Positions 1,663 through 55,433 of a stretch of 64,000 nt of DNA are shown piece after piece. The notes under the pieces are model-generated. The model saw nothing but the letters and a program-made list of their open reading frames with translations, searched no databases and was not told the origin of the DNA. Origin of the DNA: a virus. Positions within the stretch are counted from its first letter, which is position 1; each line of letters starts with the position of its first letter. The stretch is taken from the IMG/VR virus record IMGVR_UViG_3300021197_000864, positions 1 through 64,000 of that record, one strand, 5' to 3'. Both the position numbers and the translations under genes were made by a program.

Positions 1663-1804
1663 TTTTCCACCTTCAATAAACTAACAAACAAACAAACGAC
1701 TGTTAGTGGAATATAATATACTACTTTTTTCTATTTATGCCTCCATAATTAGAAAGGTGGTGAGGGTAGTAATTGCAGCCGCCCCCACCATGTAAATACC
1801 TCTA

Positions 1805-3244
1805 TCAATCATTGTTTATAATAACCCATTTACCTTTGTATTTGCAATCAGATAGACTTCTAGCAGATATAGTTGCTTCTACCTCTATTGGCCCTTTATC
1901 ACTAGGGAAAGGTACATTTACACTTTGAATGATATAATCATCTAATTCTATCTCTATGAAATCATCATCAGATTTTTCAAATCGCAATTTAATTTTACCT
2001 GTATCTGTATCATATTCTTCTTGCTCTCTCAATTCTTTCCATATTGCAGTATCAGTAATTAATAGTGTTAATGATAATTCATATGTCCTTTGAGCAGGTA
2101 TATGCGCATTCATTATTTGTCTATTAGTATTACCAATAAATCTTTGTTGAGTAAAGTTATTATTAATAGTTAATGAACCTGATTTAACCCTAGCATAAGT
2201 CTGACCGAATAATGTAATAGAACCATCAGAATACATATATGGTGTAGTTGTTGAAGTATCATAATTAAACAACCCTGTTGCCCCTTCTTCGGCTCTATGA
2301 GGAACATAATCAGTAGGGGCATCAAAAGCCCTTCGAGTTACTAATTCAAGAGAAGTTTTTAATTCTTGACTTTCTTCAAAATTTAATGTCATAGTATTAA
2401 CCTGACATCCTGTAAATATTCTTGAATACATAGATGCTCCACCATCATCTACAACAAGCCTATTGGTATTAGATGCTTTATTATAACTTACATCTAAAGC
2501 AAACGAAGGTAATTCTTGACCATTTAATTCTTTAAATGTATATTGTATTGTGCCAGTACCAATCTCTTTTAAAGGGTCTGTATCTAAAACAGGAGGAAAC
2601 TCATTTCCACCAATTACTCTTAAAAATTTAGTGCTATTGTTACCCGCAGTGACAGTTTTACTACTACTACCCATAGCAGTACTTGTTGCTGTATGTTCTA
2701 CCGCATCAATCTTACCTAAAGCATAGTAAAACCAAGAACCATTATTCAAAGAAATATCTAAAGAGCCACCACTAACTGTTTCTGCACCTTTGTATTGGTG
2801 TGCAAAGTTTCGTGAACCTGAAACTGCTAGATTAAGTTGTTTCATTTCAACTTCAACATTAGGAGGAGTAAACTCATTGACTAGACCTAACCAATTATCT
2901 GATAATAAAGCGTTTCTATTAGCACTTGCTCGAACAAACTGTGAAGTAGGTACAGGTGCGCCAAACTTTTGAATTGTTGCTCTTATAGAACCTGATGTTA
3001 AAGCAGTAGTTGCATCTATGGTTATTGTTGATTCAGAATTATCTACTATGGTGTGATATTCAGTAGTACTACCTTGGAATAATTTCACTTCACAACCTAT
3101 ATACAAATCAGGAACTAGTTTTATTGTAGTATCATTAAATGTAATTACTTTACCTGTAAATTGACAGGTAGTACCTAGTAAAATATTGCTTTCAGGTATC
3201 ATTGTTGCTTGTGTGCCACTACCGACATATACTTCATTACTCAT
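1805..3244 (-). CDS. major tail (tube) protein
   Basis: 479 aa beta/Thr/Ser-rich; FTGCQVNTMTLNF, GSLTINNN and GPIEVEATISA patterns typical of siphovirus tail tubes; synteny. Confidence 0.75.
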   Translation of the reverse strand: MSNEVYVGSGTQATMIPESNILLGTTCQFTGKVITFNDTTIKLVPDLYIGCEVKLFQGSTTEYHTIVDNSESTITIDATTALTSGSIRATIQKFGAPVPTSQFVRASANRNALLSDNWLGLVNEFTPPNVEVEMKQLNLAVSGSRNFAHQYKGAETVSGGSLDISLNNGSWFYYALGKIDAVEHTATSTAMGSSSKTVTAGNNSTKFLRVIGGNEFPPVLDTDPLKEIGTGTIQYTFKELNGQELPSFALDVSYNKASNTNRLVVDDGGASMYSRIFTGCQVNTMTLNFEESQELKTSLELVTRRAFDAPTDYVPHRAEEGATGLFNYDTSTTTPYMYSDGSITLFGQTYARVKSGSLTINNNFTQQRFIGNTNRQIMNAHIPAQRTYELSLTLLITDTAIWKELREQEEYDTDTGKIKLRFEKSDDDFIEIELDDYIIQSVNVPFPSDKGPIEVEATISARSLSDCKYKGKWVIINND

Positions 3245-3255
3245 TTTTTATCACC

Positions 3256-3771
3256 TTAGATGCTTCTAGCGAACCGCTTTAACTCAATGGAAAGTTTGTA
3301 TCCTAATAACCTTTTTCCTCTATCATTGGCTTCGCTTCTTCCTGTTAGTTTAATCAACTCTGCACTCTCTTCCGTAGAAGTCCCTGCATTTACCGTAGGA
3401 TTTAGACCATTACTTTCTATAATATATCTAGCAATTCTGTATAGTGCTTGTAGCCTATCTCTAGAAAATGTTAACTCGGCAAAATCCCTACGATGCAATA
3501 CTCTCAAATGTAAAGTAAAGGTATAAGTTTCATTTCTAACAGAATAATCTATGGTAGGATATTCAGTAGAATTACTATCTTCAAAAACAACTATTACTGA
3601 TTGAGAATCAACATCAACTCTTCTCCCTTCATTGGGAGCAATAGACCGAACATCAATAAATCTTGGAGTTGCAATATGTGATGAAGTTATATCTCCTCTA
3701 GATTGTAAAGTGCTTGCAGCAGATGACCAATTATCACTCAATAATTCAATGATAAATGTTACTTCATCCAT
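3256..3771 (-). CDS. putative tail terminator/completion protein
   Basis: 171 aa directly upstream of tail tube; alpha/beta pattern. Confidence 0.5.
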   Translation of the reverse strand: MDEVTFIIELLSDNWSSAASTLQSRGDITSSHIATPRFIDVRSIAPNEGRRVDVDSQSVIVVFEDSNSTEYPTIDYSVRNETYTFTLHLRVLHRRDFAELTFSRDRLQALYRIARYIIESNGLNPTVNAGTSTEESAELIKLTGRSEANDRGKRLLGYKLSIELKRFARSI

Positions 3772-3956
3772 GATGAAACCTCTTTAGTAATTTCTTTCTC
3801 TAACTCTTTTTGAAATATATCCATAGCATTTTTTAAAGTATCTTCTTCTGAAAAACTCATATCAAAACCCAAATCATCTTCTATCTCTTTTAACAAAAGA
3901 TTTCTCTGTTTTTGGATTTCCAAAATCTCATTAAATCTAGCCATCAATTTTTTCAT
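3759..3956 (-). CDS. hypothetical protein
   Basis: Tightly packed ORF in neck operon. Confidence 0.55.
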   Translation of the reverse strand: MKKLMARFNEILEIQKQRNLLLKEIEDDLGFDMSFSEEDTLKNAMDIFQKELEKEITKEVSSWMK

Positions 3957-3960
3957 AATA

Positions 3961-5031
3961 TCACAAACTATAAATTACTATTTTCTTGCCATTTAGAGTT
4001 TCCATTGCTTCTTTTACTAATATATCATGCTTAGTTTTTAAGTCAATATTAGAACCTGTTTCAGCAATTAATATTGAATTATCATCATGTCTTATTATTT
4101 CAGCAGCAACCAATTTAGTTGCGGCATCATGTATAACTCCGGGTACTCTTCTATCTCCACTAACATAAGTTATTTTACAAGAATGATTTTGAACATAAGG
4201 ATAATTTTTCAAAAAGAATATTTTACCCTCACTGTTAATAGTCCAATAATCACCTAATCGTCTTTGGTCTTGATTGTCTGTAAAGTTTGTTTTAGAACCT
4301 GCACTAACAGTTATAGTACAATCTGAACCATCATCCCCCGGTAAAAGGGAAGATATAATCACTTTACTGCTGTCTTCTGTATCAGTAGATGCATAAAAGA
4401 AATCAGATATGTTTCTAGTTAATCCACCACTAGTAGCAGTTTTAGATTTAGCCGCAGTCTCACCTGTAAATTGTGCAGTTTGTTGTGGAAATACTTCATT
4501 AATTGCATCTGCTACTTGACTAGCAGTAGTCTTTTTACCAAATGAACCAAAGAAATGAACACCTTCTGTTAATACAAATGAAAAATTACCTACTCCTAAT
4601 GTTAAATTATATCCTGAACCTGTTGCAGGTGGAGAATAAGAAGCAGTAGCAGAAGCCAAATCAACATAACTATTACCTTGCCAAACTTCTAATCTAACTA
4701 TTTTCATTATTTTAGGTCTTTCTAATTGTATAAAACCCACATAGTCTTTGTATGGTTGTACCGGATACTGAGCATGTCTAAAGAACTCAAAATTATGTAC
4801 TTCATCTCTGTATATTATTGGTCTAAAAGGATGACCTACTTTATCATCTATCTTATCTTCAACTCTTTTAATTATTTTACCTACTTCTGCTCTTGTAGGA
4901 GTCGTACTATCCGTAAACGCACTAATTTGTAATAAGTTAGAAATATCAGTATGTGTTGTATAATATCCAAAACCTATATTATAATTCACATCAATATTGG
5001 TGAAATCACTTGGTGATGATGCTTTACCCAT
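3961..5031 (-). CDS. putative head-tail adaptor with inserted beta domain
   Basis: N-terminal YTTxxDI...IxRVEDxID and C-terminal VPxxIxxAATKLVA helices resemble gp6/gp15-like adaptors; neck position. Confidence 0.55.
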   Translation of the reverse strand: MGKASSPSDFTNIDVNYNIGFGYYTTHTDISNLLQISAFTDSTTPTRAEVGKIIKRVEDKIDDKVGHPFRPIIYRDEVHNFEFFRHAQYPVQPYKDYVGFIQLERPKIMKIVRLEVWQGNSYVDLASATASYSPPATGSGYNLTLGVGNFSFVLTEGVHFFGSFGKKTTASQVADAINEVFPQQTAQFTGETAAKSKTATSGGLTRNISDFFYASTDTEDSSKVIISSLLPGDDGSDCTITVSAGSKTNFTDNQDQRRLGDYWTINSEGKIFFLKNYPYVQNHSCKITYVSGDRRVPGVIHDAATKLVAAEIIRHDDNSILIAETGSNIDLKTKHDILVKEAMETLNGKKIVIYSL

Positions 5032-5046
5032 TTAATTCACCCCAAA

Positions 5047-6777
5047 TCAAAACCTATCCACCATCCGTTCTAAACTTCTGTATGTCGCCTTTAGTCTATT
5101 AATTGTTCCTACATCTTTCAATTGGTATTCCCCCGTTGAACTATCTTTTTCTGATGATATTGTTTTTGACCCACCACGTTCTGTCATTCTTTTACCCCTA
5201 CGTTCAGGAGATAAAAATGTTTTATTAACATTAAAATTATACTCACTTAAATATTCTTTTGCTATTTCATCTATCTTTATTACAGGAAATACATTACTAG
5301 TCATTTTTAATCTACCTGCATCTGTAATTTCTTTTGTTCCAAGAGCATTTGAGCCATCTTCTTTTCTACCTGATACAATTCTTTTTTGTCTAGGTGTATT
5401 ATACCATGCTAAAAATTCTTGAGGTTCTTTATTTATAGCAGCATCAACAAAACTTGCCCCATATGTTTCTATAATATCTTCTAAAATATCTCTTTCAGAA
5501 CTTATATCAGTAACATCTTCATCTCCCTCATCGGACTCAATAATTAATCTATTTTGTTCATCAATTGATACAGAAGCATTTGCGTTATCTCTAATTGATT
5601 TTTCTGCTTCTAATACTTTTTTTCTATCTCTAGATGCCTCTACCAAATCTTTAGCAGTATCTTTCGCTTCACCACTACTATAATCACCAGTTATTGCTGC
5701 TATATCAGATTTATTTAATTTCATCTTTTTATATGTAATATCCAAACTACCTGTTTTTAATTTACCATTTTCAGGCTGAACAAAACTCATGATTGCATCT
5801 TTTATAGGATTAGTTACAGGTTTATTTAAATCTAAAGATATATCTTCCATAGTAAAAGATTCAAAATATGACTTTGCTTCTGCAAAATCTGTAAAACTTT
5901 TATCTTCTCCTAAACCGTAGAAAATATATTCATCATCACCATCTTCATTAACTTCTACACGCATTGCGTAAATAATACCTGATTTTCCTGTAACTTTTTT
6001 AGAATCCCGAATACCTCTTTCTTGTATATCTTTAGCATCAAATATAGTACCTACTTTTACCTTTACTGTTTTCTTAAATGATTTTCTTTTACCTGACTTT
6101 AAATTGCCTTTTCTATCCATTATCTTTGCATCTTTTAACATTTTTTCTATGTATTTTTCAGAATCAAATATAATACCGCTATTACCACTATTAACATAGT
6201 CACTTAGATTAGAACTCAACATAGGTTTTCCTGAAAGAAATGCATCTAATGTACTATTATCACTACCTTCTACTTCTAAAGTATAGTTGATAACTCTATC
6301 TACTTTGGCTTTATTCTCTAAATCTTTTACTTTAAATTTAATATCATCCATTCTTTTTTTAGTAATATCACTAAAAATAGTTGATTCATTTAAAAGATTT
6401 CTTTTCTTTAAATCATTAATCAAAGATATTAAATTTTGTTGTTGTATTACAGTTAGAAACCTATCCATATACATTCCATATGATTCATGAGAATAATATG
6501 GTCTATTTTCATTACTTAAATCAATTTCTGAACTATTAATATCTAAATTATCAAACTTTTTTTTATTTAATGTATCATAAACAAGGTCATCTAGATTATT
6601 CATTCTAGGATTATTAGGCTGTATTTCATGAAAAATATAAGTAACTAAATGCTCATATAATTTTACATTTTCCATAAGCCTAACATGACCATACGTTAAA
6701 TATGTAGGTTCTAATATAATGTCTGATTGAGTCGGGCTATTATCATCTTCAACAAATATTCGTTCTGCTTCTGCCAT
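5047..6777 (-). CDS. hypothetical protein (576 aa)
   Basis: Long ORF with GGTGA RBS; no recognisable motif. Confidence 0.75.
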   Translation of the reverse strand: MAEAERIFVEDDNSPTQSDIILEPTYLTYGHVRLMENVKLYEHLVTYIFHEIQPNNPRMNNLDDLVYDTLNKKKFDNLDINSSEIDLSNENRPYYSHESYGMYMDRFLTVIQQQNLISLINDLKKRNLLNESTIFSDITKKRMDDIKFKVKDLENKAKVDRVINYTLEVEGSDNSTLDAFLSGKPMLSSNLSDYVNSGNSGIIFDSEKYIEKMLKDAKIMDRKGNLKSGKRKSFKKTVKVKVGTIFDAKDIQERGIRDSKKVTGKSGIIYAMRVEVNEDGDDEYIFYGLGEDKSFTDFAEAKSYFESFTMEDISLDLNKPVTNPIKDAIMSFVQPENGKLKTGSLDITYKKMKLNKSDIAAITGDYSSGEAKDTAKDLVEASRDRKKVLEAEKSIRDNANASVSIDEQNRLIIESDEGDEDVTDISSERDILEDIIETYGASFVDAAINKEPQEFLAWYNTPRQKRIVSGRKEDGSNALGTKEITDAGRLKMTSNVFPVIKIDEIAKEYLSEYNFNVNKTFLSPERRGKRMTERGGSKTISSEKDSSTGEYQLKDVGTINRLKATYRSLERMVDRF

Positions 6778-6790
6778 TTACTCACCATAT

Positions 6791-7504
6791 TTACGCCAAC
6801 CATTTAGCCCAAGCAACTGCTTTACCAATTCCCTGTGCTATCCCCAATCCACTTTGAGGTGGTGTATATGTTGGTTGACCTGTTTGTGGGTCAATCCAAT
6901 ATGGATTATTAAACTGGTCATAACCTGATGGTGGTATAGGATAACCACTACCATTGTTCATAGCCATTTGTTGTTGCATTACTTGTTGATTCATTCCACC
7001 CATTGCAGGTGCGCCTTGTATATTTGCAGGATTCATACCTTGAGGATTACCCATTGCAGGATTCATACCTTGAGGACTACCTTGTGCCATTGAACCTGAA
7101 CTAGATGCAAATCCTTGAGACTCTAAATATTGTTCTTTTGCCATCTTTCTTTGCATAATAACTTCGGTATTAAGTGCAGCACCTAGAATATTCTGCAAAT
7201 CTAATGTAATATTTTCAGCAGTAATAGATTCATATTCTCTCAATGAATCAGGATGTACTTCTAAATCTCCACCTGCACCTTGAATAAATTTTAATTGTGG
7301 TAGCATTTGTCCTAATACTCTTTGTGTAACATCTTCTAACAATTTTTCAAATGCTGTTAAAAATGCTTCACCATGATAATAGAAGAACTCTTCTACATGA
7401 TTTTCTTGTAGTGTCAATAAATTATTCATTGACTTAAATTGCGTTTGTTGGTTTTGTGTTATCTGATTCGATAACGACCCATTACTTGTACCTAGCCACC
7501 CCAT
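6791..7504 (-). CDS. Q/M/G/N low-complexity protein with C-terminal amphipathic helix
   Basis: PQGMNPA repeats, YWIDPQTGQPTY motif, ends GIAQGIGKAVAWAKWLA. Confidence 0.75.
   Translation of the reverse strand: MGWLGTSNGSLSNQITQNQQTQFKSMNNLLTLQENHVEEFFYYHGEAFLTAFEKLLEDVTQRVLGQMLPQLKFIQGAGGDLEVHPDSLREYESITAENITLDLQNILGAALNTEVIMQRKMAKEQYLESQGFASSSGSMAQGSPQGMNPAMGNPQGMNPANIQGAPAMGGMNQQVMQQQMAMNNGSGYPIPPSGYDQFNNPYWIDPQTGQPTYTPPQSGLGIAQGIGKAVAWAKWLA
7024..7076. repeat. 23-bp direct repeat, period 30, encoding PQGMNPA
   Basis: ttgcaggattcataccttgagga at 7024 and 7054. Confidence 0.9.
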
Positions 7505-8169
7505 TCGTCTTCCTCCTTATTTTCTTGTATTTGTGTTCCTTCTATTAATAATTTTTTAACTCTTTCATTATGTGCATTATTTTCTACAATTAATCTAAAC
7601 AATTCTTCCTCTCTTGTTTCTGTATTCATTTGTGGGGGTTTTATAGTCCATCCTAATGCTGATAAGTTTTGTATGTCCTGTTGTTTCAAAGTAGTTAATG
7701 GCCCACTTGCAATTGGATTTAGTGATTTCATACTAGGTACATAAGCACTAAATGATAATCCATGTTCCTCCGCAAGCATCTGTTGTTCTAACATTTCATA
7801 TTGCCTATGCATATGAGAATGCTTATCACAATAAGTACCTCTCATTGGGTAGCCCTTCCTAACTTTATGTAAAGGTATCGGTGGTCTAGTTGCATCAGAA
7901 GCATTCCAACGCTTTTGTGTACCGCATACTACACACCTATCTTTTACATTAAATGCAAACTTATATGGGATTTTTAAAAATGTTTTTTTCTCAGGTTTGA
8001 GAATAGCAACAATTTCTTTTAATTGTTTTTTTGGCTTGTTACTTTTAAATTCATATTTCATTATAGAACCCGGTGCGCGAGCCATTTCTTTGGGAGGTAA
8101 AAATGGATTGGCTTCAACATATGCGTTAGTAGAACCAATTAAACTAGGAGGCTGATAATTCATACTCAT
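7492..8169 (-). CDS. zinc-finger protein, ArfGAP-like signature (tentative)
   Basis: CVVCG..RWNAS...GTYCDKHSHMHR versus ArfGAP CxxC..WAS...GxxxCxxCSxxHR. Confidence 0.5.
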   Translation of the reverse strand: MSMNYQPPSLIGSTNAYVEANPFLPPKEMARAPGSIMKYEFKSNKPKKQLKEIVAILKPEKKTFLKIPYKFAFNVKDRCVVCGTQKRWNASDATRPPIPLHKVRKGYPMRGTYCDKHSHMHRQYEMLEQQMLAEEHGLSFSAYVPSMKSLNPIASGPLTTLKQQDIQNLSALGWTIKPPQMNTETREEELFRLIVENNAHNERVKKLLIEGTQIQENKEEDEWGG

Positions 8170-8267
8170 TGTTCAATCCCATCCATTTCTTTACATTCAA
8201 TACAATTACAAAATTCACTCATAGAACAATTTAATGTTGTATAATATCTTTTTTCTTTTCTTTTCAT
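8166..8267 (-). CDS. 33-aa Cys-rich microprotein (not in ORF track)
   Basis: MKRKEKRYYTTLNCSMSEFCNCIECKEMDGIEQ; AGGTGA RBS; ATGA overlap with next gene. Confidence 0.6.
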   Translation of the reverse strand: MKRKEKRYYTTLNCSMSEFCNCIECKEMDGIEQ

Positions 8268-8275
8268 TTAATCAC

Positions 8276-8947
8276 CTAATAATCTTTAATCATTGTTAAT
8301 ACGCCACGATATACCATTTCTGAATCTGATTTTGCACTTACTATATATTTGAAGCATGGTATTCCTTTCTCATTTAATTTTGTCATTCCACTTTTAAAAG
8401 TCTCAAATATTGGATGGTCTTTAATTTCTCCTTCATGTGGGTATTTGTCTTTCCATAAATCATATTTGTTAGCCCATATACCTACTGCTATTGGATAATC
8501 ATGAGATTTTTTTCTACCCTTTTTATTTATAGCATCCCAATAAGGAGAACATATTGTATCAACTAAAAAAGTCCAACACAACTGCTGCTCAATATCATAA
8601 TGCTTATCCATATGTCTGTCATCAATCATGAATATGATATACTTAACCTTTCTAGTTTTCATATCCCCAATCCATTCAGACCAAAATACTGTTTCTCCTC
8701 CTACATCTGCTGTTTTAACTGTATGTGCATCCCCATCTAATTTAACATATTTCCTACTTGCCTTTTCACGACCAACAGTTCTTTTCTTAATTTCCGGTAC
8801 TTCACCTCTCGTTCTTAATTGATGATGTAATGTGGTTTTTCCTACCTTTGTTGCACCATAGATACCAAAAGGAATAGAATGCATTCTGTTCCACATCTTT
8901 GCTACGCCTTCTGCTACTAATATAACAAACCCCGCCATTACTGACAT
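8276..8947 (-). CDS. Ras-superfamily (Arf-like) small GTPase
   Basis: G1 GATKVGKT, G2 RTVG, G3 DVGGE, G4 NKYD, G5 SAK; N-terminal hydrophobic/amphipathic helix. Confidence 0.9.
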   Translation of the reverse strand: MSVMAGFVILVAEGVAKMWNRMHSIPFGIYGATKVGKTTLHHQLRTRGEVPEIKKRTVGREKASRKYVKLDGDAHTVKTADVGGETVFWSEWIGDMKTRKVKYIIFMIDDRHMDKHYDIEQQLCWTFLVDTICSPYWDAINKKGRKKSHDYPIAVGIWANKYDLWKDKYPHEGEIKDHPIFETFKSGMTKLNEKGIPCFKYIVSAKSDSEMVYRGVLTMIKDY

Positions 8948-8953
8948 AATTAA

Positions 8954-9187
8954 TCACCATAGATGATGCCACCAATTAACGATTGCAGTCCAAGTAGAAT
9001 TATAAAGATTAATTCCCCAAAAAGGCAAAGCATGCCCTACAAAAAAACTAGTAATACATGCGGCAGTTGACCAAAGAAAAAATCTAGTTCTTAAAAACCA
9101 TATATCAGCAGAATGCGCTCTTTGTAAATCATATGCTAATGTGGATTCATCGAATCCCATTAATAATTCAGAAACCATATACCTCAC
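8954..9187 (-). CDS. small membrane protein
   Basis: Hydrophobic segment FFLWSTAACITSFFVGHALPF; Trp-rich C-terminus. Confidence 0.7.
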   Translation of the reverse strand: MRYMVSELLMGFDESTLAYDLQRAHSADIWFLRTRFFLWSTAACITSFFVGHALPFWGINLYNSTWTAIVNWWHHLW

Positions 9188-9615
9188 TCATTCATAGTCA
9201 AGAATGTAGGGCTTATGGTATTATCAACAGGTTGCTGATATGTTTGACCAAATGCAGGTACGGGATTTTGTATGAAGTTATTTCCGTAAGTTTGGTCATA
9301 TTGACGCATTGTATCTCTAACTCTCTTTCGATTTTCTTCTTCTTTCTGTTTTCTAGACCAATATGCATCTATCTTTCTTTGCAATAAAATATCTTCTATT
9401 CTATCAAATAAAGTTAAATCGAATATTGCTTTCAGTATCATTATACCTCCTATGGTTAATATCCCAAACAATAGTGCATGGGTATAACCTGCATATGGAA
9501 ACATAAATCCATATTGGGTATAAAAATAAATATTAACGCCACTTACTGCGCCAACAAATAAAATCGTCATTACTAATCTTGTATCATCTTCTAAACTTGG
9601 CATTCTTTTTTCCAC
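9184..9615 (-). CDS. two-TM membrane protein with coiled-coil tail
   Basis: Two hydrophobic helices then charged helix and Q/P/N tail. Confidence 0.75.
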   Translation of the reverse strand: MEKRMPSLEDDTRLVMTILFVGAVSGVNIYFYTQYGFMFPYAGYTHALLFGILTIGGIMILKAIFDLTLFDRIEDILLQRKIDAYWSRKQKEEENRKRVRDTMRQYDQTYGNNFIQNPVPAFGQTYQQPVDNTISPTFLTMNE

Positions 9616-46617: not shown

Positions 46618-46664
46618 TTATAGACCTATAAAAATGTAGAGAAAAATACAAGGAAAGTGAAAAT

Positions 46665-46874
46665 ATGAAATTAACAATAGCAAATGAAACCGGACATACG
46701 GTAATGGAAAATATGACAGTAGATGATATGCTTGACCAAATACAAGACCATCCAACACATTGGATATATCTTGATGGGATTCAAGTACCTAAAGAAACAA
46801 TTACAGCAACAGACTGGGACTCAGTAGCAGATGTACTGCTAATGCCCGGTATGCAGGGTGGAGGCAACCAATAA
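46665..46874 (+). CDS. ubiquitin-like (SAMP/ThiS/MoaD beta-grasp) protein with C-terminal extension
   Basis: 69 aa; TVDDML, IYLDG, DVLLMPGMQGG followed by GNQ. Confidence 0.7.
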   Translation: MKLTIANETGHTVMENMTVDDMLDQIQDHPTHWIYLDGIQVPKETITATDWDSVADVLLMPGMQGGGNQ

Positions 46875-46906
46875 ATACCATTTAGGTATTTATGTCTCTA
46901 CAATTG

Positions 46907-46950
46907 AGGTGGCAGCATTCCCTCACAATTTGCTGCCCCTCATACCTTTT
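46907..46950 (+). terminator. hairpin after Ubl gene
   Basis: gaggtggcagca...tttgctgcccctc followed by T-run. Confidence 0.5.
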
Positions 46951-46965
46951 TAGGAGAGGAATCCT

Positions 46966-47346
46966 ATGTTATGCGATTATGCGAATATATTACCGACTGG
47001 AATATTACCAGTCTTTTTGAAATCACAAGGTTGGCTTTACCGTGATAGTAAAAAATATGAAGATTATACTTTAATGAAGCCCGACTTTTACCCTGTTGGA
47101 TATGTTCTAGCAGTGAGTATGAAAGCAGTTATTATTTGTGATGGGGAAACCTTGATTGAATATAACAATAAACAATATAAAGATGTAGATGATTTAATTT
47201 CAGAATATGGAATTGATGTAATTTCTACCTTCCCATCTTGGAACTTTTTGGTCGAGAGAGAATGGGTCGTAAAGAAGAATGGTGAATATGTTCATTCATT
47301 CTCTTCATTTGACCAAATAGTAGAAAGAAAAAAATTAAGGTGTTAA
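46966..47346 (+). CDS. hypothetical protein
   Basis: GGAGAGG RBS. Confidence 0.65.
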   Translation: MLCDYANILPTGILPVFLKSQGWLYRDSKKYEDYTLMKPDFYPVGYVLAVSMKAVIICDGETLIEYNNKQYKDVDDLISEYGIDVISTFPSWNFLVEREWVVKKNGEYVHSFSSFDQIVERKKLRC

Positions 47347-49232
47347 AGATGAAAGAAATGGAACTACAAAATAAAGTGCTATCAGAGTTTAATGTATTTA
47401 CGAAGTATGCTAAATATAGAGCAGATGATAATAGAAGAGAAACGTGGGATGAGATTTGTGAAAGAAACAAACAAATGCATCTTAAAAAATATATTAATAG
47501 AGGTAATCCTCAATTGATTGAAGAGATAGAAAATGTATATGAGAACTTTGTTAAACCTAGAAAGGTAGTTCCATCAATGAGGTCTTTTCAATTTGCAGGT
47601 AAACCCGTAGAACTATCACCTAATAGATTATACAATTGTGCATATATGCCAATAGATTCTTTAGAGTGTTTTTCTGAGTCTATGTTTTTGTTATTAGGTG
47701 GAACAGGTGTAGGGTATTCCGTACAACGTCATCATGTAGAACAACTACCAACTATCAGAAAACCCAATCCTGATAAGTTTAGAAGAATATTAATTAATGA
47801 TTCTATTGAAGGTTGGGCTGATGCAATTAAAGTTCTTTTTGAATCATACTTTGGTATGAGAACATCTTCTCCTAATTTTGATTATGATGATATTAGACCT
47901 AAAGGTGCGCCACTAAAAACTAGTGGTGGAAAAGCACCCGGTCCAGCACCACTAAAAATAGCATTAGTTAAAATTGAAACAATGTTATTACAAAAAGAAG
48001 AAGGTACACAACTAACTCCTTTAGAGTGCCATGATATATTATGTCATATTGCTCATGCAGTTTTATCGGGTGGTATTAGACGAGCAGCATTAATATCTTT
48101 ATTTAGTGCTGATGATAATGAAATGATTAATTGTAAAGCAGGTAAGTGGTATGAACAGAATCCACAAAGAGGTAGAGCAAATAACTCAGCATTCTTACTT
48201 AGACATAGAATAGAAAAAGGATTCTTTGAAGATTTATGGGAAAGAATTAGATTATCTAACTCAGGAGAACCGGGAATATATTTCTCCCATGATAAAGATT
48301 GGGGAACAAATCCTTGCTGCGAGATTGCTTTACGCCCATATCAGTTCTGTAACTTGTCAGAGTGTAATGTTTCTGATGTTTTATCTCAAGAAGATTTAGA
48401 AGAGAGAGTAAAAGCAGCCGCTTTCTTAGGAACTTTACAAGCAGGTTATACAGATTTCCACTATTTACGGGAAGTTTGGCAGAAAACTACTGAAAAAGAT
48501 GCACTTTTAGGTGTGTCTATGACGGGAATAGGTAGTAATAAAGTAACTTTATTAGATATTGAACAAGCAGCAATCGTTGCAAAGAATGAAAATGAAAGAG
48601 TTGCTGAATTACTTGGGATAAATAAAGCAGCAAGAGTTACTTGTGTTAAACCATCAGGAACGGCTAGTTGTGTATTAGGTACTTCATCAGGTATTCATCC
48701 TTGGTATGCTCCATTCTATAATAGAAGAGTTAGAGTAAACAAAGTAGAACCTGTATATCAATATCTATTAGATAGAGTACCTGATTTAATAGAAGATGAT
48801 TACTTTAGTGCTACTGAAGCAGTATTCTCTATACCACAAAAAGCACCTAAAGGTGATGTAATAACTAGACATGAGTCTGCAATTAATATGTTAGAACGTG
48901 TAAAGCGTTTTTCTGTTGGTTGGGTTCAACGTGGTCATAGGGATGGATTGAATACTCATAATGTATCTGCAACTGTTCAAATTCGTGAAGATGAATGGGA
49001 AGATGTAGGTGCATGGATGTGGTTAAATAGACATTATTACAATGGTCTAGCAGTTTTACCATATGATAATGGTTCTTATAAACAAGCACCATTTGAAGAA
49101 ATAACAGAAGAAGAATATAATAGTATGAGGTCTAAACTATATGATTTAGACTTTACACAAGTAATAGAATTAGATGACAATACCGATTTACAAGGAGAAA
49201 TTGCTTGTGCAGGTGGAGTTTGTGAAATATGA
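47340..49232 (+). CDS. nrdJ: class II (B12-dependent) ribonucleotide reductase
   Basis: YNC, GGTGVG, GGIRRAA, TNPCCEI, CNL, VKPSGTAS, C-terminal CAGGVCEI; no beta subunit. Confidence 0.92.
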   Translation: MLKMKEMELQNKVLSEFNVFTKYAKYRADDNRRETWDEICERNKQMHLKKYINRGNPQLIEEIENVYENFVKPRKVVPSMRSFQFAGKPVELSPNRLYNCAYMPIDSLECFSESMFLLLGGTGVGYSVQRHHVEQLPTIRKPNPDKFRRILINDSIEGWADAIKVLFESYFGMRTSSPNFDYDDIRPKGAPLKTSGGKAPGPAPLKIALVKIETMLLQKEEGTQLTPLECHDILCHIAHAVLSGGIRRAALISLFSADDNEMINCKAGKWYEQNPQRGRANNSAFLLRHRIEKGFFEDLWERIRLSNSGEPGIYFSHDKDWGTNPCCEIALRPYQFCNLSECNVSDVLSQEDLEERVKAAAFLGTLQAGYTDFHYLREVWQKTTEKDALLGVSMTGIGSNKVTLLDIEQAAIVAKNENERVAELLGINKAARVTCVKPSGTASCVLGTSSGIHPWYAPFYNRRVRVNKVEPVYQYLLDRVPDLIEDDYFSATEAVFSIPQKAPKGDVITRHESAINMLERVKRFSVGWVQRGHRDGLNTHNVSATVQIREDEWEDVGAWMWLNRHYYNGLAVLPYDNGSYKQAPFEEITEEEYNSMRSKLYDLDFTQVIELDDNTDLQGEIACAGGVCEI

Positions 49233-49516
49233 GATATAGGTCAAAACTGAATAGAGAAGAGTTTCTAGAAATAGAACAAGAAATATATGATATGTTTTCT
49301 AATGATACAGTTAAAAACAATGTGCATAAGAGATTCAATCAGTTGAGGGATGGTAATATGACTCCCCTAACATTTATGCATAACTTATTGCGTACAATGA
49401 ATACTATCAACAATATAACGAGGAGTGAAGCCCTCACAAAAATAGTGGAAACACACGAATATAAAAAATATAAAGAGAGGAATATAAATGAAGATAATTT
49501 ACGAGAACATACCTAA
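49229..49516 (+). CDS. hypothetical protein
   Basis: ATGA overlap. Confidence 0.6.
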   Translation: MRYRSKLNREEFLEIEQEIYDMFSNDTVKNNVHKRFNQLRDGNMTPLTFMHNLLRTMNTINNITRSEALTKIVETHEYKKYKERNINEDNLREHT

Positions 49517-49745
49517 GAGCAAAATAATAAAAGCATATAGAAATAAACTGAAAGAATCAGGACTTTATACCAAACGGTATAATACTTCTGATTGTGTACC
49601 TGCTTTGGTACGGCCTAATGTTATGGGTTCTACAATGAGTTGGGTTGACTTTCGTAGATTACCTAGAGAAATGGTTGCAATGCATTGTTTTATGCAAGGT
49701 CTAACTATTGATGGGGTTCAAACTATTATGGAGGAAGAAGAGTGA
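49488..49745 (+). CDS. hypothetical protein
   Basis: GAGG RBS. Confidence 0.6.
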   Translation: MKIIYENIPKSKIIKAYRNKLKESGLYTKRYNTSDCVPALVRPNVMGSTMSWVDFRRLPREMVAMHCFMQGLTIDGVQTIMEEEE

Positions 49746-50962
49746 AAGTTAAGTTACATGTTCCGAGAGCAGATGATAGTCAGATATTTGATACAACAAG
49801 TTTTCTATATCGCACTACTGATTTGAAACGTAATTATCGTAGTAAACTAAATAGATTTGGTGAATATAAAGTAGTAAGTACTCTTGACTTAGATAAAAAA
49901 AATAGTTTAGACCCTATTTATGCAGGAATTAGTAAAGCATTAAATAAATTTCTATTTATGTCAACCAATGATAATGTTACAACTATTATTACCTTTAAGT
50001 ATAGGGATGGGGACTCAACTATTGTTTTTCAAAAGAATAAACCTCACTTTTTCTTAAATGGTGAGAAAGATAGTAAAGGTATTATTATAGATAATTTAAG
50101 TAAGATTTTTTATCGTTCTTGTTTTGAGAAGAGTAGTACTAAGATGGATAGATATATTCGTAGGTTGTTATTATTTCCACCGAATGTAATGTATTCAGTA
50201 GAAAATAGAACACCTTATTCATTTTATAGTAATGATGGGTCAATGGTGAAACAGAATGTTAGGATTAAAACAAAGATAATTTCTGATAAAGAATGTGCAT
50301 TAGAAATTTCTGATGGTGTTTGGGCTAGTATTACAATAAAAGATTTAAATTCATTTATTAATTACCATAGGCATGGTCATAAACGCTCTGAAAAATGGGG
50401 AGTTTCACCGGAAAACCTATGGAAAAAATTGTTAAATTATGAGCCTAGTAAGTCTCAAGTAAAATTGATGTATGCTTTTCTAGAGCAAAATAGAACTCAA
50501 TCATTAGTTGAAAAGAGAGCCGAAGAACTATTAGCAGAATTAGAAACTAAGTTTCCTAGTAAAATTAAAGTCTTTAAGTTGGGTAAACGTAAGCAAACTA
50601 TTATGCTAGTTAGAGGTCAGAGATGTGATTGGGTATTAAAAGAAAACCCTTCTTCTTCTGATACTCAAAAAGTTAATACTCATAGATTTGTAGAAAATAA
50701 TGATGGTGAAGCAAGTTCCAAAGGGGCTTTAATACATCCTCATAATTCTACGGTACTAGGTACTTTATCAGCAGTATGTATAGATAATATTCATAAAAAT
50801 TCTAGTCTAGGCGACCAATTTGCTGCAAGAGCAATGTTTCTTATGAATGATGTTATGTCAAGTTCACAAATCAATACAATGAGACTACCCGAAAAGGAAC
50901 ATAGGATACCTAATGTATATTGGGATAACTTAGATGAAATTGTTGCGAGGGGAAAACTGTGA
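49742..50962 (+). CDS. hypothetical protein; C-terminal domain tentatively E2/UBC-like
   Basis: HPH...VCID followed by helix ending LMND. Confidence 0.6.
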   Translation: MKVKLHVPRADDSQIFDTTSFLYRTTDLKRNYRSKLNRFGEYKVVSTLDLDKKNSLDPIYAGISKALNKFLFMSTNDNVTTIITFKYRDGDSTIVFQKNKPHFFLNGEKDSKGIIIDNLSKIFYRSCFEKSSTKMDRYIRRLLLFPPNVMYSVENRTPYSFYSNDGSMVKQNVRIKTKIISDKECALEISDGVWASITIKDLNSFINYHRHGHKRSEKWGVSPENLWKKLLNYEPSKSQVKLMYAFLEQNRTQSLVEKRAEELLAELETKFPSKIKVFKLGKRKQTIMLVRGQRCDWVLKENPSSSDTQKVNTHRFVENNDGEASSKGALIHPHNSTVLGTLSAVCIDNIHKNSSLGDQFAARAMFLMNDVMSSSQINTMRLPEKEHRIPNVYWDNLDEIVARGKL

Positions 50963-51861
50963 AATGTATAGAATGTGAATCAGAAAGAAATATGTTTGAT
51001 GAAAGATTGGGTGAGCAAGTTTGTTTAGATTGTGGACTTGTCTTGGTGAAAAATATATTTGAAGATACTATCAAAAATATAGATTATAATATATCAAATG
51101 TAGATTACAAAGGCGCACCTAACAAGTCTTGGGATTTAGGTTCAACTATTCATAAAGGAGATGTGAATAAGTTTGGTGTTATGGGTAGGAAATTATTCTT
51201 TACTCAAAGACATAACAACCCATTGAATGAATCTTATTTGAGGATGTTAAAATTATCTAATATGAATCTATCATATTATAATGTAGCACCTGTACTAAAG
51301 AGTAGAGTAAGTAAATATTATAATTTGTTAAATAAAAAACAGGCATTAAGAGCAGTGCCTATTGATAATAGAGCAGCAAGTTTAACTTATTATATATTAA
51401 AAGAAGCAGGTATTGCAGTAACAGTACAGAAGCATTCTAATGTAACTAAGATATCTAGAGGTGAAATATCAAAATATGCTAGAGTGATAGCAACTCATTT
51501 AGGTAAGCCTTGGGTCTTTTCTCAAATGAACATTGAAGGTTTGATTCAAGAAGTTGGGTCAAAATTATATTTACCTAACCCTCAATATATTGGGGATGTA
51601 AGTAAATTATCAGAACACGTTTATCAAAAACTAGATGCTCACGGTGTGCAATTTACAATAGCAACTTTGTCTGCATGTTTTTATCTAGTGTCAGTATTTA
51701 GACGGGAAAATTATACACAACAAGAGGTTGCTAAATTAGTCGGTACTACCGAAGTATCACTAAGAAAGAACATGAAAAAGATTTTACAATTATATAATGT
51801 AGATAAAAATAAATTAAATTATATGGTATTAAATGATTTTATTAATGGAATTAGAAAGTGA
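50959..51861 (+). CDS. tfb: transcription initiation factor IIB (TFB) homolog
   Basis: N-terminal Zn ribbon CIEC...GEQVCLDCGLV; two cyclin repeats; HTH TQQEVAKLVGTTEVSLRK. Confidence 0.88.
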   Translation: MKCIECESERNMFDERLGEQVCLDCGLVLVKNIFEDTIKNIDYNISNVDYKGAPNKSWDLGSTIHKGDVNKFGVMGRKLFFTQRHNNPLNESYLRMLKLSNMNLSYYNVAPVLKSRVSKYYNLLNKKQALRAVPIDNRAASLTYYILKEAGIAVTVQKHSNVTKISRGEISKYARVIATHLGKPWVFSQMNIEGLIQEVGSKLYLPNPQYIGDVSKLSEHVYQKLDAHGVQFTIATLSACFYLVSVFRRENYTQQEVAKLVGTTEVSLRKNMKKILQLYNVDKNKLNYMVLNDFINGIRK

Positions 51862-52102
51862 TTTTATGATTAAAGACAGTGAGTTCTGGAAAAAATGGAG
51901 AAACTCTCATAATTATGATATTGGTTATAAGGGATATACTGTGTTAAAAGGTAGGTATGTTAAAGTAACGGTAGTTGATATTGAATATTATGAGTCATCT
52001 CCTAAAAAAATATGGAGATATGTAGTAGCAACAAATTGGGGTCATAAATTAAAGAGAGTTTCACTCTTTACAAAAAAGGAAAAAATAGAATGGAGTAGTT
52101 AA
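51833..52102 (+). CDS. hypothetical protein
   Basis: Co-oriented ORF. Confidence 0.55.
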   Translation: MILLMELESDFMIKDSEFWKKWRNSHNYDIGYKGYTVLKGRYVKVTVVDIEYYESSPKKIWRYVVATNWGHKLKRVSLFTKKEKIEWSS

Positions 52103-52103
52103 A

Positions 52104-52679
52104 ATGAAAAGAAAGATAATGATAATAGGTGCAGGTGGTATAGGTAGTATGTTAATACATAATTTAGAAAGATTAGGTATTTATGACATAACTGTTTTTG
52201 ATGATGATAAGGTAGAGAAAAAGAATTTAACTTATCAACATTATAATGAAAGCCACTTAGGAGAAAATAAAGCAGAAGCAATTAGTAGTCAGTTTAATGG
52301 TATTAAAGCCGAACCGTATTTAGTTTTAGTACCAAAACAGTTGAAAGGTTATGACCTAGTTATTTGTTGTGCAGATAATTTAGATGTAAGACGCTTGCTT
52401 TATAGGCAAGGTACAGGTGATGATGCTAACGTGAAGTGGTTAGATTTACGCGCACAAGGCAGAAATGCTACGCTAATATCATATATGCTTAATCCTAATT
52501 TAGTGGATACTGTATTAACAGGGGAAGAAGGTTCTTTTTCCTGTCAAGCACAATCTTGGGATGGCTCTGCTAAAGGTGTTAATATGATGAATAATGTAAT
52601 CGCTTCTATTGCTGCTCAATGGATTCAGAAATGGTTCAATAAGCAGGAAGTAACTGCAAGTATGGTGTTTAATATATGA
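52104..52679 (+). CDS. ThiF/MoeB/E1-like activating enzyme
   Basis: IIGAGGIGS, DDDKVEKKNLTYQ, KAEA, DLVICCADN..R. Confidence 0.9.
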   Translation: MKRKIMIIGAGGIGSMLIHNLERLGIYDITVFDDDKVEKKNLTYQHYNESHLGENKAEAISSQFNGIKAEPYLVLVPKQLKGYDLVICCADNLDVRRLLYRQGTGDDANVKWLDLRAQGRNATLISYMLNPNLVDTVLTGEEGSFSCQAQSWDGSAKGVNMMNNVIASIAAQWIQKWFNKQEVTASMVFNI

Positions 52680-52918
52680 CCGATAAAGTTGATGACGATT
52701 TAGAATTATCAGATGAGGAGATAGGTGAAATAATAAGTATTATTTCTAAGGATGGGATTTATCTTAGGTCTGAAATAGTTAGAGTTTGTTGTCATGTTTG
52801 TGGTGAAGAGTTTATAGGAACAAAAAGACACGCAGGAGGCTTTCTAAGTGGGCATCAAGTATATCATGAGTCTATTATTAAAGAGAGTATTAGAGCATCC
52901 CAACAAGGAGGGGTCTGA
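52676..52918 (+). CDS. C2H2-like zinc-finger protein
   Basis: CHVCGEEF...HQVYH. Confidence 0.65.
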   Translation: MTDKVDDDLELSDEEIGEIISIISKDGIYLRSEIVRVCCHVCGEEFIGTKRHAGGFLSGHQVYHESIIKESIRASQQGGV

Positions 52919-53216
52919 TATGGGATTAGAGGATTGGAAGCCCTCTAGCGATAGTAAAGCATCAGAAATTGATGTAGTTAATGTTGTGTCAAATTGGACT
53001 AATGAATATCCAACAGAGTTTGGCATGACTAGTTTCCTAAGAGACAAGATATTTGCTGTATCTAATACAGGTAAGAGTGTGTTAGTGCATATGATGAATG
53101 GTCAAACATTTACAATAACTATTAAAAATAGCCCTATTCCTTTTTTTAAGGATGATAGGCTTACTAATGAAATTGTAATCAAAGAATTAAAAGGTGAGAA
53201 AAATGAAAAAAAATAA
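52848..53216 (+). CDS. hypothetical protein (start probably 52920)
   Basis: GGAGGGG RBS before MGLEDW. Confidence 0.6.
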   Translation: MGIKYIMSLLLKRVLEHPNKEGSDMGLEDWKPSSDSKASEIDVVNVVSNWTNEYPTEFGMTSFLRDKIFAVSNTGKSVLVHMMNGQTFTITIKNSPIPFFKDDRLTNEIVIKELKGEKNEKK

Positions 53217-53574
53217 AGTTAAGAAAGGAAAATGGGATGAGCATGAAGTAAAGTTACTTTGTGTTTGTTTGGATGAAGGTTTGGATGTTGAAGAAACAGT
53301 ATTACGATTTGATGGTACTAGGACTTCTGCACAAATTAAAAGTAAGATTTCATCCAAAGCAATAAGAGAGCGTCATGTTGATTTAGATATAGAAGAGATG
53401 CATGAGGACTTGGTTAAAGAAGAAGAAATGGAAGAACATCTAGAAAAGGTAAAAGATGTTCTCGATGAGAAAATAGCAGAAGTTAAGAAAACTAACAATA
53501 AAATGGTGTTTAGATTAGTTCTAATTACAGCAGTAATTGTTGGAGTATTAATACAAACAGGGGTAATAGAATGA
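53194..53574 (+). CDS. Myb/SANT-like domain protein with C-terminal TM anchor
   Basis: KGKWDEHEVKLL...RTSAQIKSK; LVLITAVIVGVLI tail. Confidence 0.6.
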   Translation: MRKMKKNKVKKGKWDEHEVKLLCVCLDEGLDVEETVLRFDGTRTSAQIKSKISSKAIRERHVDLDIEEMHEDLVKEEEMEEHLEKVKDVLDEKIAEVKKTNNKMVFRLVLITAVIVGVLIQTGVIE

Positions 53575-54146
53575 AGATAAAGAATAGTGAAGAAGAATAT
53601 GATAAGAATGATAGATTTAGTGACGACACTAAATTATATGTAGATATAATGGAAAAGGTTGTTAAAGATAACGAATGGAAAAAACCTATTAGAGAATTAT
53701 GGGAAGTATGTTCTGATAGTATGGAATGGGTGTATCCTGATTTTGGTACAGAAGCATTCCTGAGTCAAATATACAAACAATCTATTGAGCATTTTGATAT
53801 TCCTAGAGAAGTTCAAGTGTTAGTAGATGCTAATAATAATCTATTCATGAGTGTTGGGACACCGGGTTTTGTATCTTTTGCAAATCAAGATGATGAGTTA
53901 TATGGTAGTGAAGAACCAATGAAATTACCTATTAAATGTTGGATTCACACTCATCCTAATATGTCAGCGTATTTCAGTGGAACTGATTGGGCAACTATTG
54001 ATACTTGGAAAGGTAATTTAGATAGTGCAATTGTTTTAGGTCAAGGTGAAATGTGGGCTTATGATTGTAAAACTGAAATAGGTAAGCACGTATCATTTAT
54101 TAAGACCAATAGTGGTAGGTATTCTGTAACGGAAGGTGAGGAGTGA
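53571..54146 (+). CDS. JAB/MPN+ (JAMM) metalloprotease
   Basis: Upstream Glu (REVQ) and WIHTHPNMSAYFSGTD = HxH-x7-S-x2-D. Confidence 0.9.
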   Translation: MKIKNSEEEYDKNDRFSDDTKLYVDIMEKVVKDNEWKKPIRELWEVCSDSMEWVYPDFGTEAFLSQIYKQSIEHFDIPREVQVLVDANNNLFMSVGTPGFVSFANQDDELYGSEEPMKLPIKCWIHTHPNMSAYFSGTDWATIDTWKGNLDSAIVLGQGEMWAYDCKTEIGKHVSFIKTNSGRYSVTEGEE

Positions 54147-54631: not shown

Positions 54632-55017
54632 CCGTAACTTTCCCTGCCCCATTACCCGCAGAAGTTCCTTGTCCTATTTGTGAAGGGAATAAATGTAAGG
54701 TTTGTGAGTGGAGTGGTAAATTACATATTACTGTTGATGCAAAAATACCTATACAAAGAGCGCACATCGTAAAGTTTGTAGCAGAAAATATGAGTAGTAT
54801 GTCAACTCTATTAAACAAACAATATGGTTTAAGTCCTGAAATAGAAACAGAAGAGATGATTCAATATCAGGGCGGTGTGTATGAAGTTGTCAGGATTAGT
54901 AGTCTTGGTGGTGCAATGTGGATGGTGCATAGAGTGGATAAACTAGAATCCCCTAGATATTTTAAAACCTATAAAGAATTAAAGACATTTAAGGGAGGAT
55001 TAGCATATGAAGAATGA
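54616..55017 (+). CDS. Zn-binding hypothetical protein
   Basis: CPICEGNKCKVC. Confidence 0.65.
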   Translation: MQPTVTVTFPAPLPAEVPCPICEGNKCKVCEWSGKLHITVDAKIPIQRAHIVKFVAENMSSMSTLLNKQYGLSPEIETEEMIQYQGGVYEVVRISSLGGAMWMVHRVDKLESPRYFKTYKELKTFKGGLAYEE

Positions 55018-55249
55018 AAGAATCGTAGTAAGAATACCTAGAAATGCTACGTCAGAATTACTTGTGGTAACAGGTAATTATTGGAATATTGATGTATTGG
55101 ATATTCGATGGTATGATAATGGTAAACCTACCAAAAAAGGTGTTAGAATGAATATAGACGAAGCCGAGTCTCTAAATAAGGCATTAAGGAGAGCATTAAA
55201 TGATAATATCAATAAGAAAACTAAAGAAAGAATTGAAGAAGAGACTTAG
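55007..55249 (+). CDS. PC4/p15-like ssDNA-binding protein
   Basis: LDIRWY...PTKKGVRM. Confidence 0.8.
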   Translation: MKNERIVVRIPRNATSELLVVTGNYWNIDVLDIRWYDNGKPTKKGVRMNIDEAESLNKALRRALNDNINKKTKERIEEET

Positions 55250-55433
55250 AACAGGAACATACATCAGTGCAGATATCTATCCTATTATGGATAAGTATAT
55301 GAGATTTAGTTTAAATGAACTAAATTTAGAAATTGCTAACATATATACTGAAAGTGGCGATAGAAAAATTACTACTATTCATGTAGAAAAGGCAATGTTG
55401 AATTTGCTTTTATCTAAAACAGAGGAGGAATAA
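55200..55433 (+). CDS. histone-fold protein
   Basis: alpha1-ISAD-long alpha2-GDRKITTIHV-alpha3 layout like archaeal histones. Confidence 0.6.
   Translation: MIISIRKLKKELKKRLRTGTYISADIYPIMDKYMRFSLNELNLEIANIYTESGDRKITTIHVEKAMLNLLLSKTEEE

Follow-up and report, generated by a model that had tools for sequence, protein, structure and literature searches.

Prokaryotic ubiquitin-like protein (Ubl) conjugation systems (SAMP, Bil, Bub and CBASS Cap2/3) are known from cells, where most of them are defences. In Bub type I operons, a JAB-E1 protein cuts a Ubl-E2 fusion (PMC11601596, Ye et al. 2024), and class 6e of Iyer et al. has the same layout together with a zinc-finger protein. E1 and E2 of Bub are without catalytic cysteine and act via oxyesters, and such E1s can work without a catalytic cysteine (PMC11601596). 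Furthermore, an E1 with an adjacent JAB and no rhodanese was described as a mark of E2-containing operon classes (Iyer et al. 2006). Here, we describe a set of Ubl, E1 and JAB genes carried by the linear virus record IMGVR_UViG_3300021197_000864 (95,571 bp, 100% complete according to CheckV), in a stretch comprising its first 64 kb, positions 1 to 64,000, which we call the window. We conclude that the virus, on balance, probably encodes a Ubl protein-conjugation system of its own, and that it carries its own form of a system that many members of its host order, the Poseidoniales, also have. Four genes are central to this reading; as with all open reading frames (ORFs) cited in the initial annotation of this DNA, those it cited are present where it had placed them.

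46665-46874, plus strand: Ubl precursor, 69 residues, beta-grasp model, with invariant G65 and G66 followed by the three-residue tail GNQ (end ...MQGG-GNQ)
49742-50962, plus strand: Cys-motif protein, 406 residues, candidate E2-like carrier or acceptor, two genes upstream of E1, with its stop overlapping the TFB start
52104-52679, plus strand: minimal E1/ThiF-type adenylating enzyme, 191 residues, Pfam ThiF, with GxGGxG, D33, K56, D91-N92 and R96 kept
53571-54146, plus strand: JAMM/MPN+ (JAB) metalloprotease, 191 residues, with an N-terminal extension of ~75 residues and an intact JAMM motif

In architecture, the set is closest to Bub/6E, then to Bil and then to archaeal sampylation; it would resemble these in working, yet is a member of none, because the defining features of each known family fail. 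Like Bub type I (6E/6E.1), it has a Ubl with between one and three beta-grasp domains, which would be joined via its C-terminal glycine to a carrier and released by JAB, a minimal E1 of the homodimer type that has a single domain and is physically linked to JAB (by fusion in host relatives, by adjacency in the virus), and a small Zn-finger protein in the operon class. Unlike in Bub, E1 and candidate carrier each keep one invariant cysteine, the fusion order is E1-JAB instead of JAB-E1, no DUF6527/BubE serine protease was found in the genome ORFs, Ubl and candidate carrier match no Pfam family, and the setting is archaea and an archaeal virus; the profile match to BubCD reaches only E 6e-4. Bil (BilA Ubl, BilB E2, BilC JAB, BilD E1) likewise combines Ubl, E1, JAB and a separate carrier without an E3, and its Ubl is among the structural matches of the viral Ubl (8tyz_B, Z 4.5), but no Prok-E2 family was found here, and Bil is a host defence whereas this copy is encoded by a virus. 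Sampylation (SAMP1-3, UbaA, HvJAMM1) shares the archaeal setting, a beta-grasp Ubl with GG, a MoeB-type E1 and a JAMM protease removing tails and conjugates. It differs in that the viral E1 scores 38.7 bits against the UbaA model (NF047750, cut-off 450), UbaA retains Zn sites and has a second role in sulfur transfer, the ThiS/MoaD Pfam models recognize SAMPs but not the viral Ubl, and an E2 is not needed for sampylation, whereas here the linkage includes a fourth protein, which bears a cysteine.

Two further systems show partial likeness. PRTRC ThiF belongs to cassettes that are carried on mobile elements. Its model (TIGR03736) is the best-scoring curated E1 model (58.8 bits for the viral E1, 69.1 bits for the archaeal fused E1), but both scores are far under the cut-off of 144.75 and neither ParB nor other PRTRC proteins are present. 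The tail assembly proteins I and K of phages lambda and T1 also represent a virus-encoded Ubl with a conserved C-terminal glycine plus a JAB; that pair, however, lies in a tail module, has no E1 and comes with no evidence of conjugation.

For the 69-residue protein, described in the initial annotation as beta-grasp-like, the AlphaFold2 model (23 homologues) has a mean predicted local distance difference test (pLDDT) score of 89.5 and is indeed a beta-grasp, with the element order b-b-a-b-b-(a)-b (strands 2-6, 11-14, 32-36, 39-41 and 56-61; helices 19-28 and 43-48) followed by a disordered tail. Every top match in a Foldseek search of the PDB is ubiquitin (probability 0.93-0.99, E 3e-3 to 2e-2, template modelling score ~0.45), while VIA-align ranks MoaD first (Z 5.2, root-mean-square deviation 3.1 Å, 61 residues aligned), followed by Ubl domains, ThiS, Urm1, CysO and the Bil Ubl mentioned above. 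These scores are modest, as expected with 65 residues, and sequence conservation is the stronger evidence. Across 23 sequences, with identities as low as 42%, neither G65 nor G66 varies, while the 0-3 residues that follow are variable in number and identity. Since the glycine codons differ synonymously (GGT/GGA/GGC/GGG) and no start codon lies downstream, what is conserved here is the protein rather than a ribosome-binding site. In one viral relative (L032), the Ubl stops exactly at GG and JAB is still present, which suggests deconjugation as well as trimming. The family is without a Pfam, NCBIfam or PHROG model, a PDB profile search with it gave nothing significant, and Pfam ThiS/MoaD (PF02597) matched neither the Ubl protein nor the six-frame translated genome at E up to 1.

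A TATA-like element, TATAAAAA, lies at 46629-46636 upstream of Ubl, and a short hairpin and a T-rich stretch follow the Ubl stop, so that the gene may form a separate transcription unit. Between the Ubl stop and the start of the B12-dependent ribonucleotide reductase (RNR) gene, many related loci (L006, L009, L014-L018, L021, L023, L026 and L029) share a conserved non-coding motif, GTCTTAGCAGTAGTTAGATTGACTGCC, with variants (positions 3400-3440 in L006), which could be a regulatory RNA or a promoter element for RNR; the spacer in the window differs and holds an extra ORF of 126 residues.

The E1/ThiF enzyme predicted earlier at 52104 matches Pfam ThiF (PF00899) over residues 3-181 with 77.3 bits (cut-off 28.1, E 1.3e-21), and its adenylation core is intact: G9-x-G11-G12-x-G14, D33, K56 and D91 do not vary and have counterparts in the alignments with MoeB and ThiF of E. 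coli. The motif G-S-F-S-C147-Q is invariant as well, and its SCQ is shared with archaeal fused E1s. The Zn sites are gone (both CxxC pairs absent, one of four Zn cysteines left, namely C147, and no C-terminal CxxC); by alignment, C147 is placed at the start of the shortened crossover region. The E1 profile has more than 1,100 matches among database proteins, and the best 120 are 52-100% identical, many of them from contigs of 80-104 kb. By PADLOC, only the Rossmann N-terminus of E1 resembles Cap2, and PHROGs hold no family for Ubl or JAB and match E1 with families of unknown function only.

The JAB as a single sequence scores 19.5 bits against Pfam Prok-JAB, under the 25-bit cut-off, while a profile of 26 homologues matches the structures of AMSH-LP, AMSH and archaeal Rpn11-like JAMM proteins (E 2.7e-5 to 6e-4). 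Residues E80, H126, H128, S136 and D139 (E...HxH-x7-S-xx-D) are invariant in the 26 sequences; the intact HxH-x7-S-x2-D read from the single gene at 53571 thus extends to every catalytic residue across the family. JAB is predicted to trim the Ubl tail and/or to remove conjugates.

The same module was found in 34 IMG/VR contigs (16-103 kb, E1 identity 51-100%). JAB is present in 33 of these 34 E1-bearing loci, the sole exception ending 1 kb past E1, and Ubl in all 28 that reach its expected place upstream of RNR; in three of the most divergent viral loci (L030, L031 and L033), the JAB start overlaps or abuts the E1 stop. Co-occurrence across magrovirus genomes had been proposed as a check, and the parts do co-occur, but the result is not informative: all core genes of the module (RNR, ligase, TFB and unknowns) are syntenic in the 34 loci, so that synteny within magroviruses proves nothing. 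It would equally suit a reading without any functional system, in which the three genes are mere neighbours in a conserved viral core module. This reading is contradicted by fusions and operons of the same families in cellular genomes, where the gene order is unlike that of the virus, and we regard it as extremely improbable.

Indeed, a search of 1.84 billion protein representatives with the Ubl profile found 144 representative family members with 129 complete domains, of which 118 end in GG and nine in AG. Among them are tandem double and triple Ubls with GG at the end of each repeat (for instance P0121, P0127 and P0129), Ubl-Ubl-E1 and Ubl-E1 fusions (P0131, P0156), and a Ubl or Ubl-Ubl joined after GG to a domain of ~300 residues (P0132, P0152, P0168, P0171). 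The fused E1 domains match Pfam ThiF with E ~1e-17 (4e-17) and share the viral hallmarks WLDLR, SCQ and QW. In two loci from metagenome-assembled genomes (MAGs; L044 and L045), a JAB gene, its product 33% identical to the viral JAB, overlaps the end of the Ubl-Ubl-E1 gene, which is preceded by a gene for a 545-residue protein; in two host-order genomes (L062 and L064), one lone Ubl gene precedes genes for an E1::JAB fusion and a small protein, and then a divergently transcribed gene for a 554-residue protein. The Ubl-Ubl-E1, E1::JAB and poly-Ubl fusions tie the families together independently of viral synteny. None of the poly-Ubl, Ubl-Ubl-E1 and Ubl-C-domain forms turned up in IMG/VR. Five large repeat proteins (P0176, P0216, P0218, P0237 and P0242) that were picked up as Ubl candidates match only at positions 15-55, via an 'N-D-x-P-T' repeat, and were rejected as false positives.

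The fusions also bear on the possibility that JAB only frees a chaperone-like beta-grasp domain, with the substrate adenylated by E1 being unrelated. One pair of this kind, TAPI (Ubl) and TAPK (JAB) of phages, is already known and does not involve conjugation, and the BFVD matches include Ubl domains of tip-attachment proteins. Direct Ubl-E1 fusions, however, argue that the Ubl is the substrate of E1; moreover, the genes belong to the replication/expression module and run on the opposite strand from the structural genes, with no NlpC/P60 or tail gene nearby. Altogether, a chaperone-like role is very improbable.

The fourth component is probably the 406-residue protein, a candidate for an E2-like carrier. 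It has one invariant cysteine, C346, in the motif C-I-D-N-x(6-8)-G-D-Q-x-A-x-R-A-M-x-L-x-N-D, and the family alignment shows C346, G357, D358, Q359, R363 and D370 to be invariant. The family hidden Markov model (HMM) matches the 554-residue protein beside the host E1::JAB operon exactly on the Cys motif (E 1.3e-6), and hhalign aligns the family with the archaeal proteins of 545-564 residues beside Ubl-Ubl-E1, which have the same motif (97 columns, E 5e-4, probability 31%). The domain fused after Ubl-GG contains a weaker version of the Cys motif (E 1.6e-3, probability 16%; E 0.041, probability 1.3%), and a direct profile comparison of the 406-residue family with single Ubl-fused proteins gave nothing. 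Hence, the profile-profile and HMM searches against operon-linked archaeal proteins lend modest support to this protein as a part of the system. A role as carrier is proposed by analogy, because in Bub type I (PMC11601596) and class 6e a JAB-E1 protein cuts a Ubl-E2 fusion. No Pfam, NCBIfam or PDB sequence match was found for the 406-residue protein, PDB profile searches with the 406- and 545-residue families gave nothing significant, and the ESM Atlas provided no usable lead for either the whole protein or its C-terminal part.

The Ubl family is also widespread on the host side. In NCBI, members of the triple-Ubl and Ubl-Ubl-E1 clusters carry the name Candidatus Poseidoniaceae or Poseidoniales archaeon, and some of them lie on contigs of 0.1-2 Mb. 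A sample of 201 genomes from the order of these MAGs gave matches to the viral Ubl profile in 111, often with two to four tandem repeats per ORF; the virus therefore holds its version of a host-common system. Host poly-Ubl genes lie mostly away from the E1/JAB operon. In six Poseidoniales-order genomes (L054, L055, L058-L061), such stand-alone genes with two to three repeats, each ending in GG, resemble eukaryotic polyubiquitin genes in their arrangement, and a conserved protein of ~381-385 residues is repeatedly encoded a few hundred bases away on the same strand. Virus and host probably both tag proteins with this gene set.

L045 (positions 1441-9283; MAG contig PSPT01000023.1) and L044 contain an island with a single-subunit RNA polymerase of the T7/mitochondrial type (Pfam RNA_pol, E 2e-55), a TFB-like Zn-ribbon protein, the 545-residue protein with Zn-ribbon and Cys motif, Ubl-Ubl-E1, JAB and an 81-residue protein. 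It is flanked by cellular genes (Tyw1, M60 peptidase). A phage-type RNA polymerase is unusual in a Poseidoniales-like MAG, and the island may be an integrated element.

Several observations weigh against conjugation as the function of the viral set. In its fold, the Ubl resembles MoaD and ThiS, which are sulfur carriers (Z 5.2-4.1), no less than ubiquitin, with modest scores for a small domain, and JAB proteases also occur in sulfur-carrier pathways (CysO/Mec+, QbsE/QbsD). E1 begins directly at the Rossmann strand and thus is without the N-terminal Arg-finger helix, Tyr44 stands in place of the Arg of NLxRQ in the alignment with MoeB and ThiF, the crossover loop is short, and C147 aligns with a former Zn ligand and not with the catalytic cysteine of ThiF/MoeB; because of these features, thioester formation, and even full adenylation activity, can be assumed only tentatively for this E1. 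As to the candidate carrier, the hhalign probabilities quoted above are low, and UQ_con, Prok-E2_A and Prok-E2_B have no match in the genome at E up to 1. An HPH(N) motif in the 406-residue protein, pointed out when the sequence was first read, turned out to be limited to close relatives of the window; the HPN...C E2 motif is not conserved in the family alignment and was dropped as evidence.

Some of these points would suit a sulfur-carrier pathway, in which E1 and sulfurtransferases of the host would thiocarboxylate the Ubl to provide sulfur for thiolation of tRNA, a cofactor or nucleic acids, and JAB would mature the carrier or free an adduct. MoaD is the best structural match, with ThiS, CysO and Urm1 also listed; the E1 is a single-domain, MoeB/ThiF-like enzyme with ThiF (59 bits) and MoeB among its closest NCBIfam models; and JAB-dependent sulfur-carrier systems exist (class 4, Iyer et al. 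2006). However, no rhodanese, MoaE, ThiG, PP-loop thiolase or cysteine desulfurase was found in ORFs of at least 60 residues of the complete genome (E up to 1e-4; at the protein level, this covers all but two giant ORFs outside the window) or beside the host operons examined. E1 carries no rhodanese domain, and a six-frame search of the genome found no rhodanese either, while 13 of 14 control genomes were positive. The initial annotation had noted that no sulfur-pathway genes are visible and had taken this as an argument against a simple sulfur-carrier role; the absence now holds for the whole genome and speaks for protein conjugation more than for sulfur carriage. Conjugation-type systems typically have poly-Ubl genes and Ubl fusions that would need cleavage after GG, and poly-Ubl, Ubl-E1 and Ubl-Cys-motif-domain fusions are hallmarks of conjugation-type operons. 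Moreover, carriers of the ThiS/MoaD type would already belong to the host. We thus consider sulfur carriage unlikely.

The reading of the initial annotation, that the virus runs protein tagging of its own, is supported, each part accessible to computation having held, and we propose the following mechanism. The 69-residue beta-grasp Ubl would be produced as a precursor, from which JAB would cut off the one to three residues after Gly-Gly; poly-Ubl and Ubl fusions would be further substrates of JAB in relatives. The exposed C-terminal glycine would be adenylated by the minimal E1 with ATP, and a thioester might then form, possibly on the single invariant Cys147. The Ubl could be handed to the invariant Cys346 of the 406-residue protein, in an E2-like role, and from there transferred onto lysines of host or viral proteins, giving isopeptide products; the tag would also be reversible by JAB. 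Tagging might serve host takeover, regulation or interference with the homologous system of the host.

If the latter is taken alone, viral Ubl, E1 and JAB would act as decoys or deconjugases against a Poseidoniales pathway that is possibly antiviral. The Ubl family in 111 of the 201 host-order genomes, with homologous E1, JAB and Cys-motif proteins, would provide the target, Bil and Bub operons are tied to antiphage immunity, and the island of MAG locus L045 contains a glycosyltransferase matching Pfam 'GT4-conflict'. Yet, the parts needed for forward conjugation (GG, E1 core, Cys346) are strongly conserved in the virus, and a decoy would not need them; in addition, the host system has no shown defence function, and PADLOC recognizes the E1 N-terminus only. 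Interference as the sole function is distinctly unlikely. More tentatively, conjugation in the virus may be part of a wider scheme, possible though doubtful as a whole, in which Poseidoniales and magroviruses have a complete, uncatalogued E1/E2-like/Ubl/JAB cascade that profile libraries do not recognize, with polyubiquitin-like host precursors, and in which the viral copy retags or degrades host proteins during takeover. Transcription machinery is given as an example of a target because a TFB neighbour recurs.

Two more genes of the cluster deserve attention.

50959-51861, plus strand: TFB/TFIIB-like transcription factor, between the Cys-motif protein and E1
52676-52918, plus strand: Zn-binding protein (Zn80), 80 residues, C39-x2-C42...H52, H60-x3-H64, translationally coupled to E1

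That TFB lies inside the cluster, as read at the outset, is supported by weak matches to Zn_Ribbon_TF (E 6e-6) and the TFIIB repeat (E 4e-3), both under the Pfam cut-offs. A TFB-like gene is also found one to two genes upstream of the Ubl-Ubl-E1 fusion in two archaeal loci (L039 and L045). Among the known targets of SAMP is TBP2 (PMC4895103), of interest beside the embedded TFB.

The zinc finger described earlier as adjacent to E1 is real, conserved and coupled to E1, with C39, C42, H52, H60 and H64 invariant, but a functional link to E1 gained no support, and tblastn found no Zn80 in the most divergent viral loci (L030-L033), where E1 and JAB abut directly. The AlphaFold2 model of Zn80 (pLDDT 78.9) consists of three strands and a long helix and found no fold match (Foldseek E >1, VIA Z 3.6 or lower), and a PDB profile search gave nothing significant. 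Zn80 ends in GG plus one residue and was considered as a second Ubl-like substrate. These glycines are nearly always encoded by GGAGGA, 7-10 nt before the next ATG, and therefore a ribosome-binding site accounts for the GG end; we left this candidate as ambiguous. Other plus-strand ORFs end in EE(E) or EEET with GAGGAG-type codons (e.g. 49734-49745, 54135-54146 and 55422-55433; the Zn80 end is at 52906-52918). The C-termini of coupled genes here are shaped by the Shine-Dalgarno sequence of the next gene, and GG or EEE ends need to be read at the codon level. For the 122-residue ORF that follows (52848-53216), the start is uncertain: relatives start at an ATG (MGLEDWK...) just after the Zn80 stop, which is replaced by ATA in the window and in two IMG/VR contigs with identical E1 (L001 and L003), and in these three the ORF could start only at a GTG located 70 nt upstream and overlaps Zn80.

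The genes for Ubl, E1 and JAB are part of the replication/expression module of the plus-strand half of the genome, together with class II RNR, two ATP-dependent ligases, an RFC-like AAA+ protein, TFB, a PC4-like protein and split family-B polymerase genes, while the structural module of head-tail type (portal, prohead protease, SU10-type capsid protein, tail tube, terminase) occupies the minus-strand half. This module and its relatives fit magroviruses, which infect Marine Group II archaea (PMC5434244). The PC4-like product is encoded by an 80-residue ORF at 55007-55249, kept across related loci, with a weak, sub-cut-off match to the PC4 transcriptional coactivator/ssDNA-binding fold (E 2e-4). 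Two giant minus-strand ORFs (3,720 and 2,201 residues; genome positions 74880-92992, outside the window) make up nearly one fifth of the genome, and an Rfam scan of the whole window gave no family at threshold.

A collection of phage GenBank entries contained no close relative of E1, with crAss-like phages as the only matches (27-36% identity). The crAss-like phage cr106_1 (MT774378.1; L046, positions 4168-6600) encodes a 405-residue JAB-domain protein (E 6e-8 to the viral JAB profile) directly followed by a 403-residue protein with a C-terminal E1 domain (E 3e-20). The pair is located in a replication module near uracil-DNA glycosylase and class II RNR genes, and a 92-residue beta-grasp-like protein from this phage is among the BFVD matches. 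Bacterial viruses may thus carry related sets.

The magrovirus papers searched mention neither ubiquitin nor ThiF nor JAB, our literature search found no description of such a set in archaeal viruses or Poseidoniales, and for one Marine Group II genome, RING and UCH were the only families reported by Grau-Bove et al. Within the literature searched, neither a self-contained set as core module of a whole archaeal virus order nor the homologous set of the host order is described. If the set conjugates, virus and host would contest each other with the same tagging chemistry, and archaeal ubiquitin-signalling evolution would gain a new Ubl family, a stripped-down E1 without Zn and Arg finger, and possibly a new carrier fold. 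It would also offer a testable handle on the infection biology of the uncultured Marine Group II archaea, the parts being small and soluble. The wider cascade, if true, would be the first virus-run Ubl conjugation outside eukaryotic viruses, and would take place in archaea that rank among the most abundant ones in the surface ocean.

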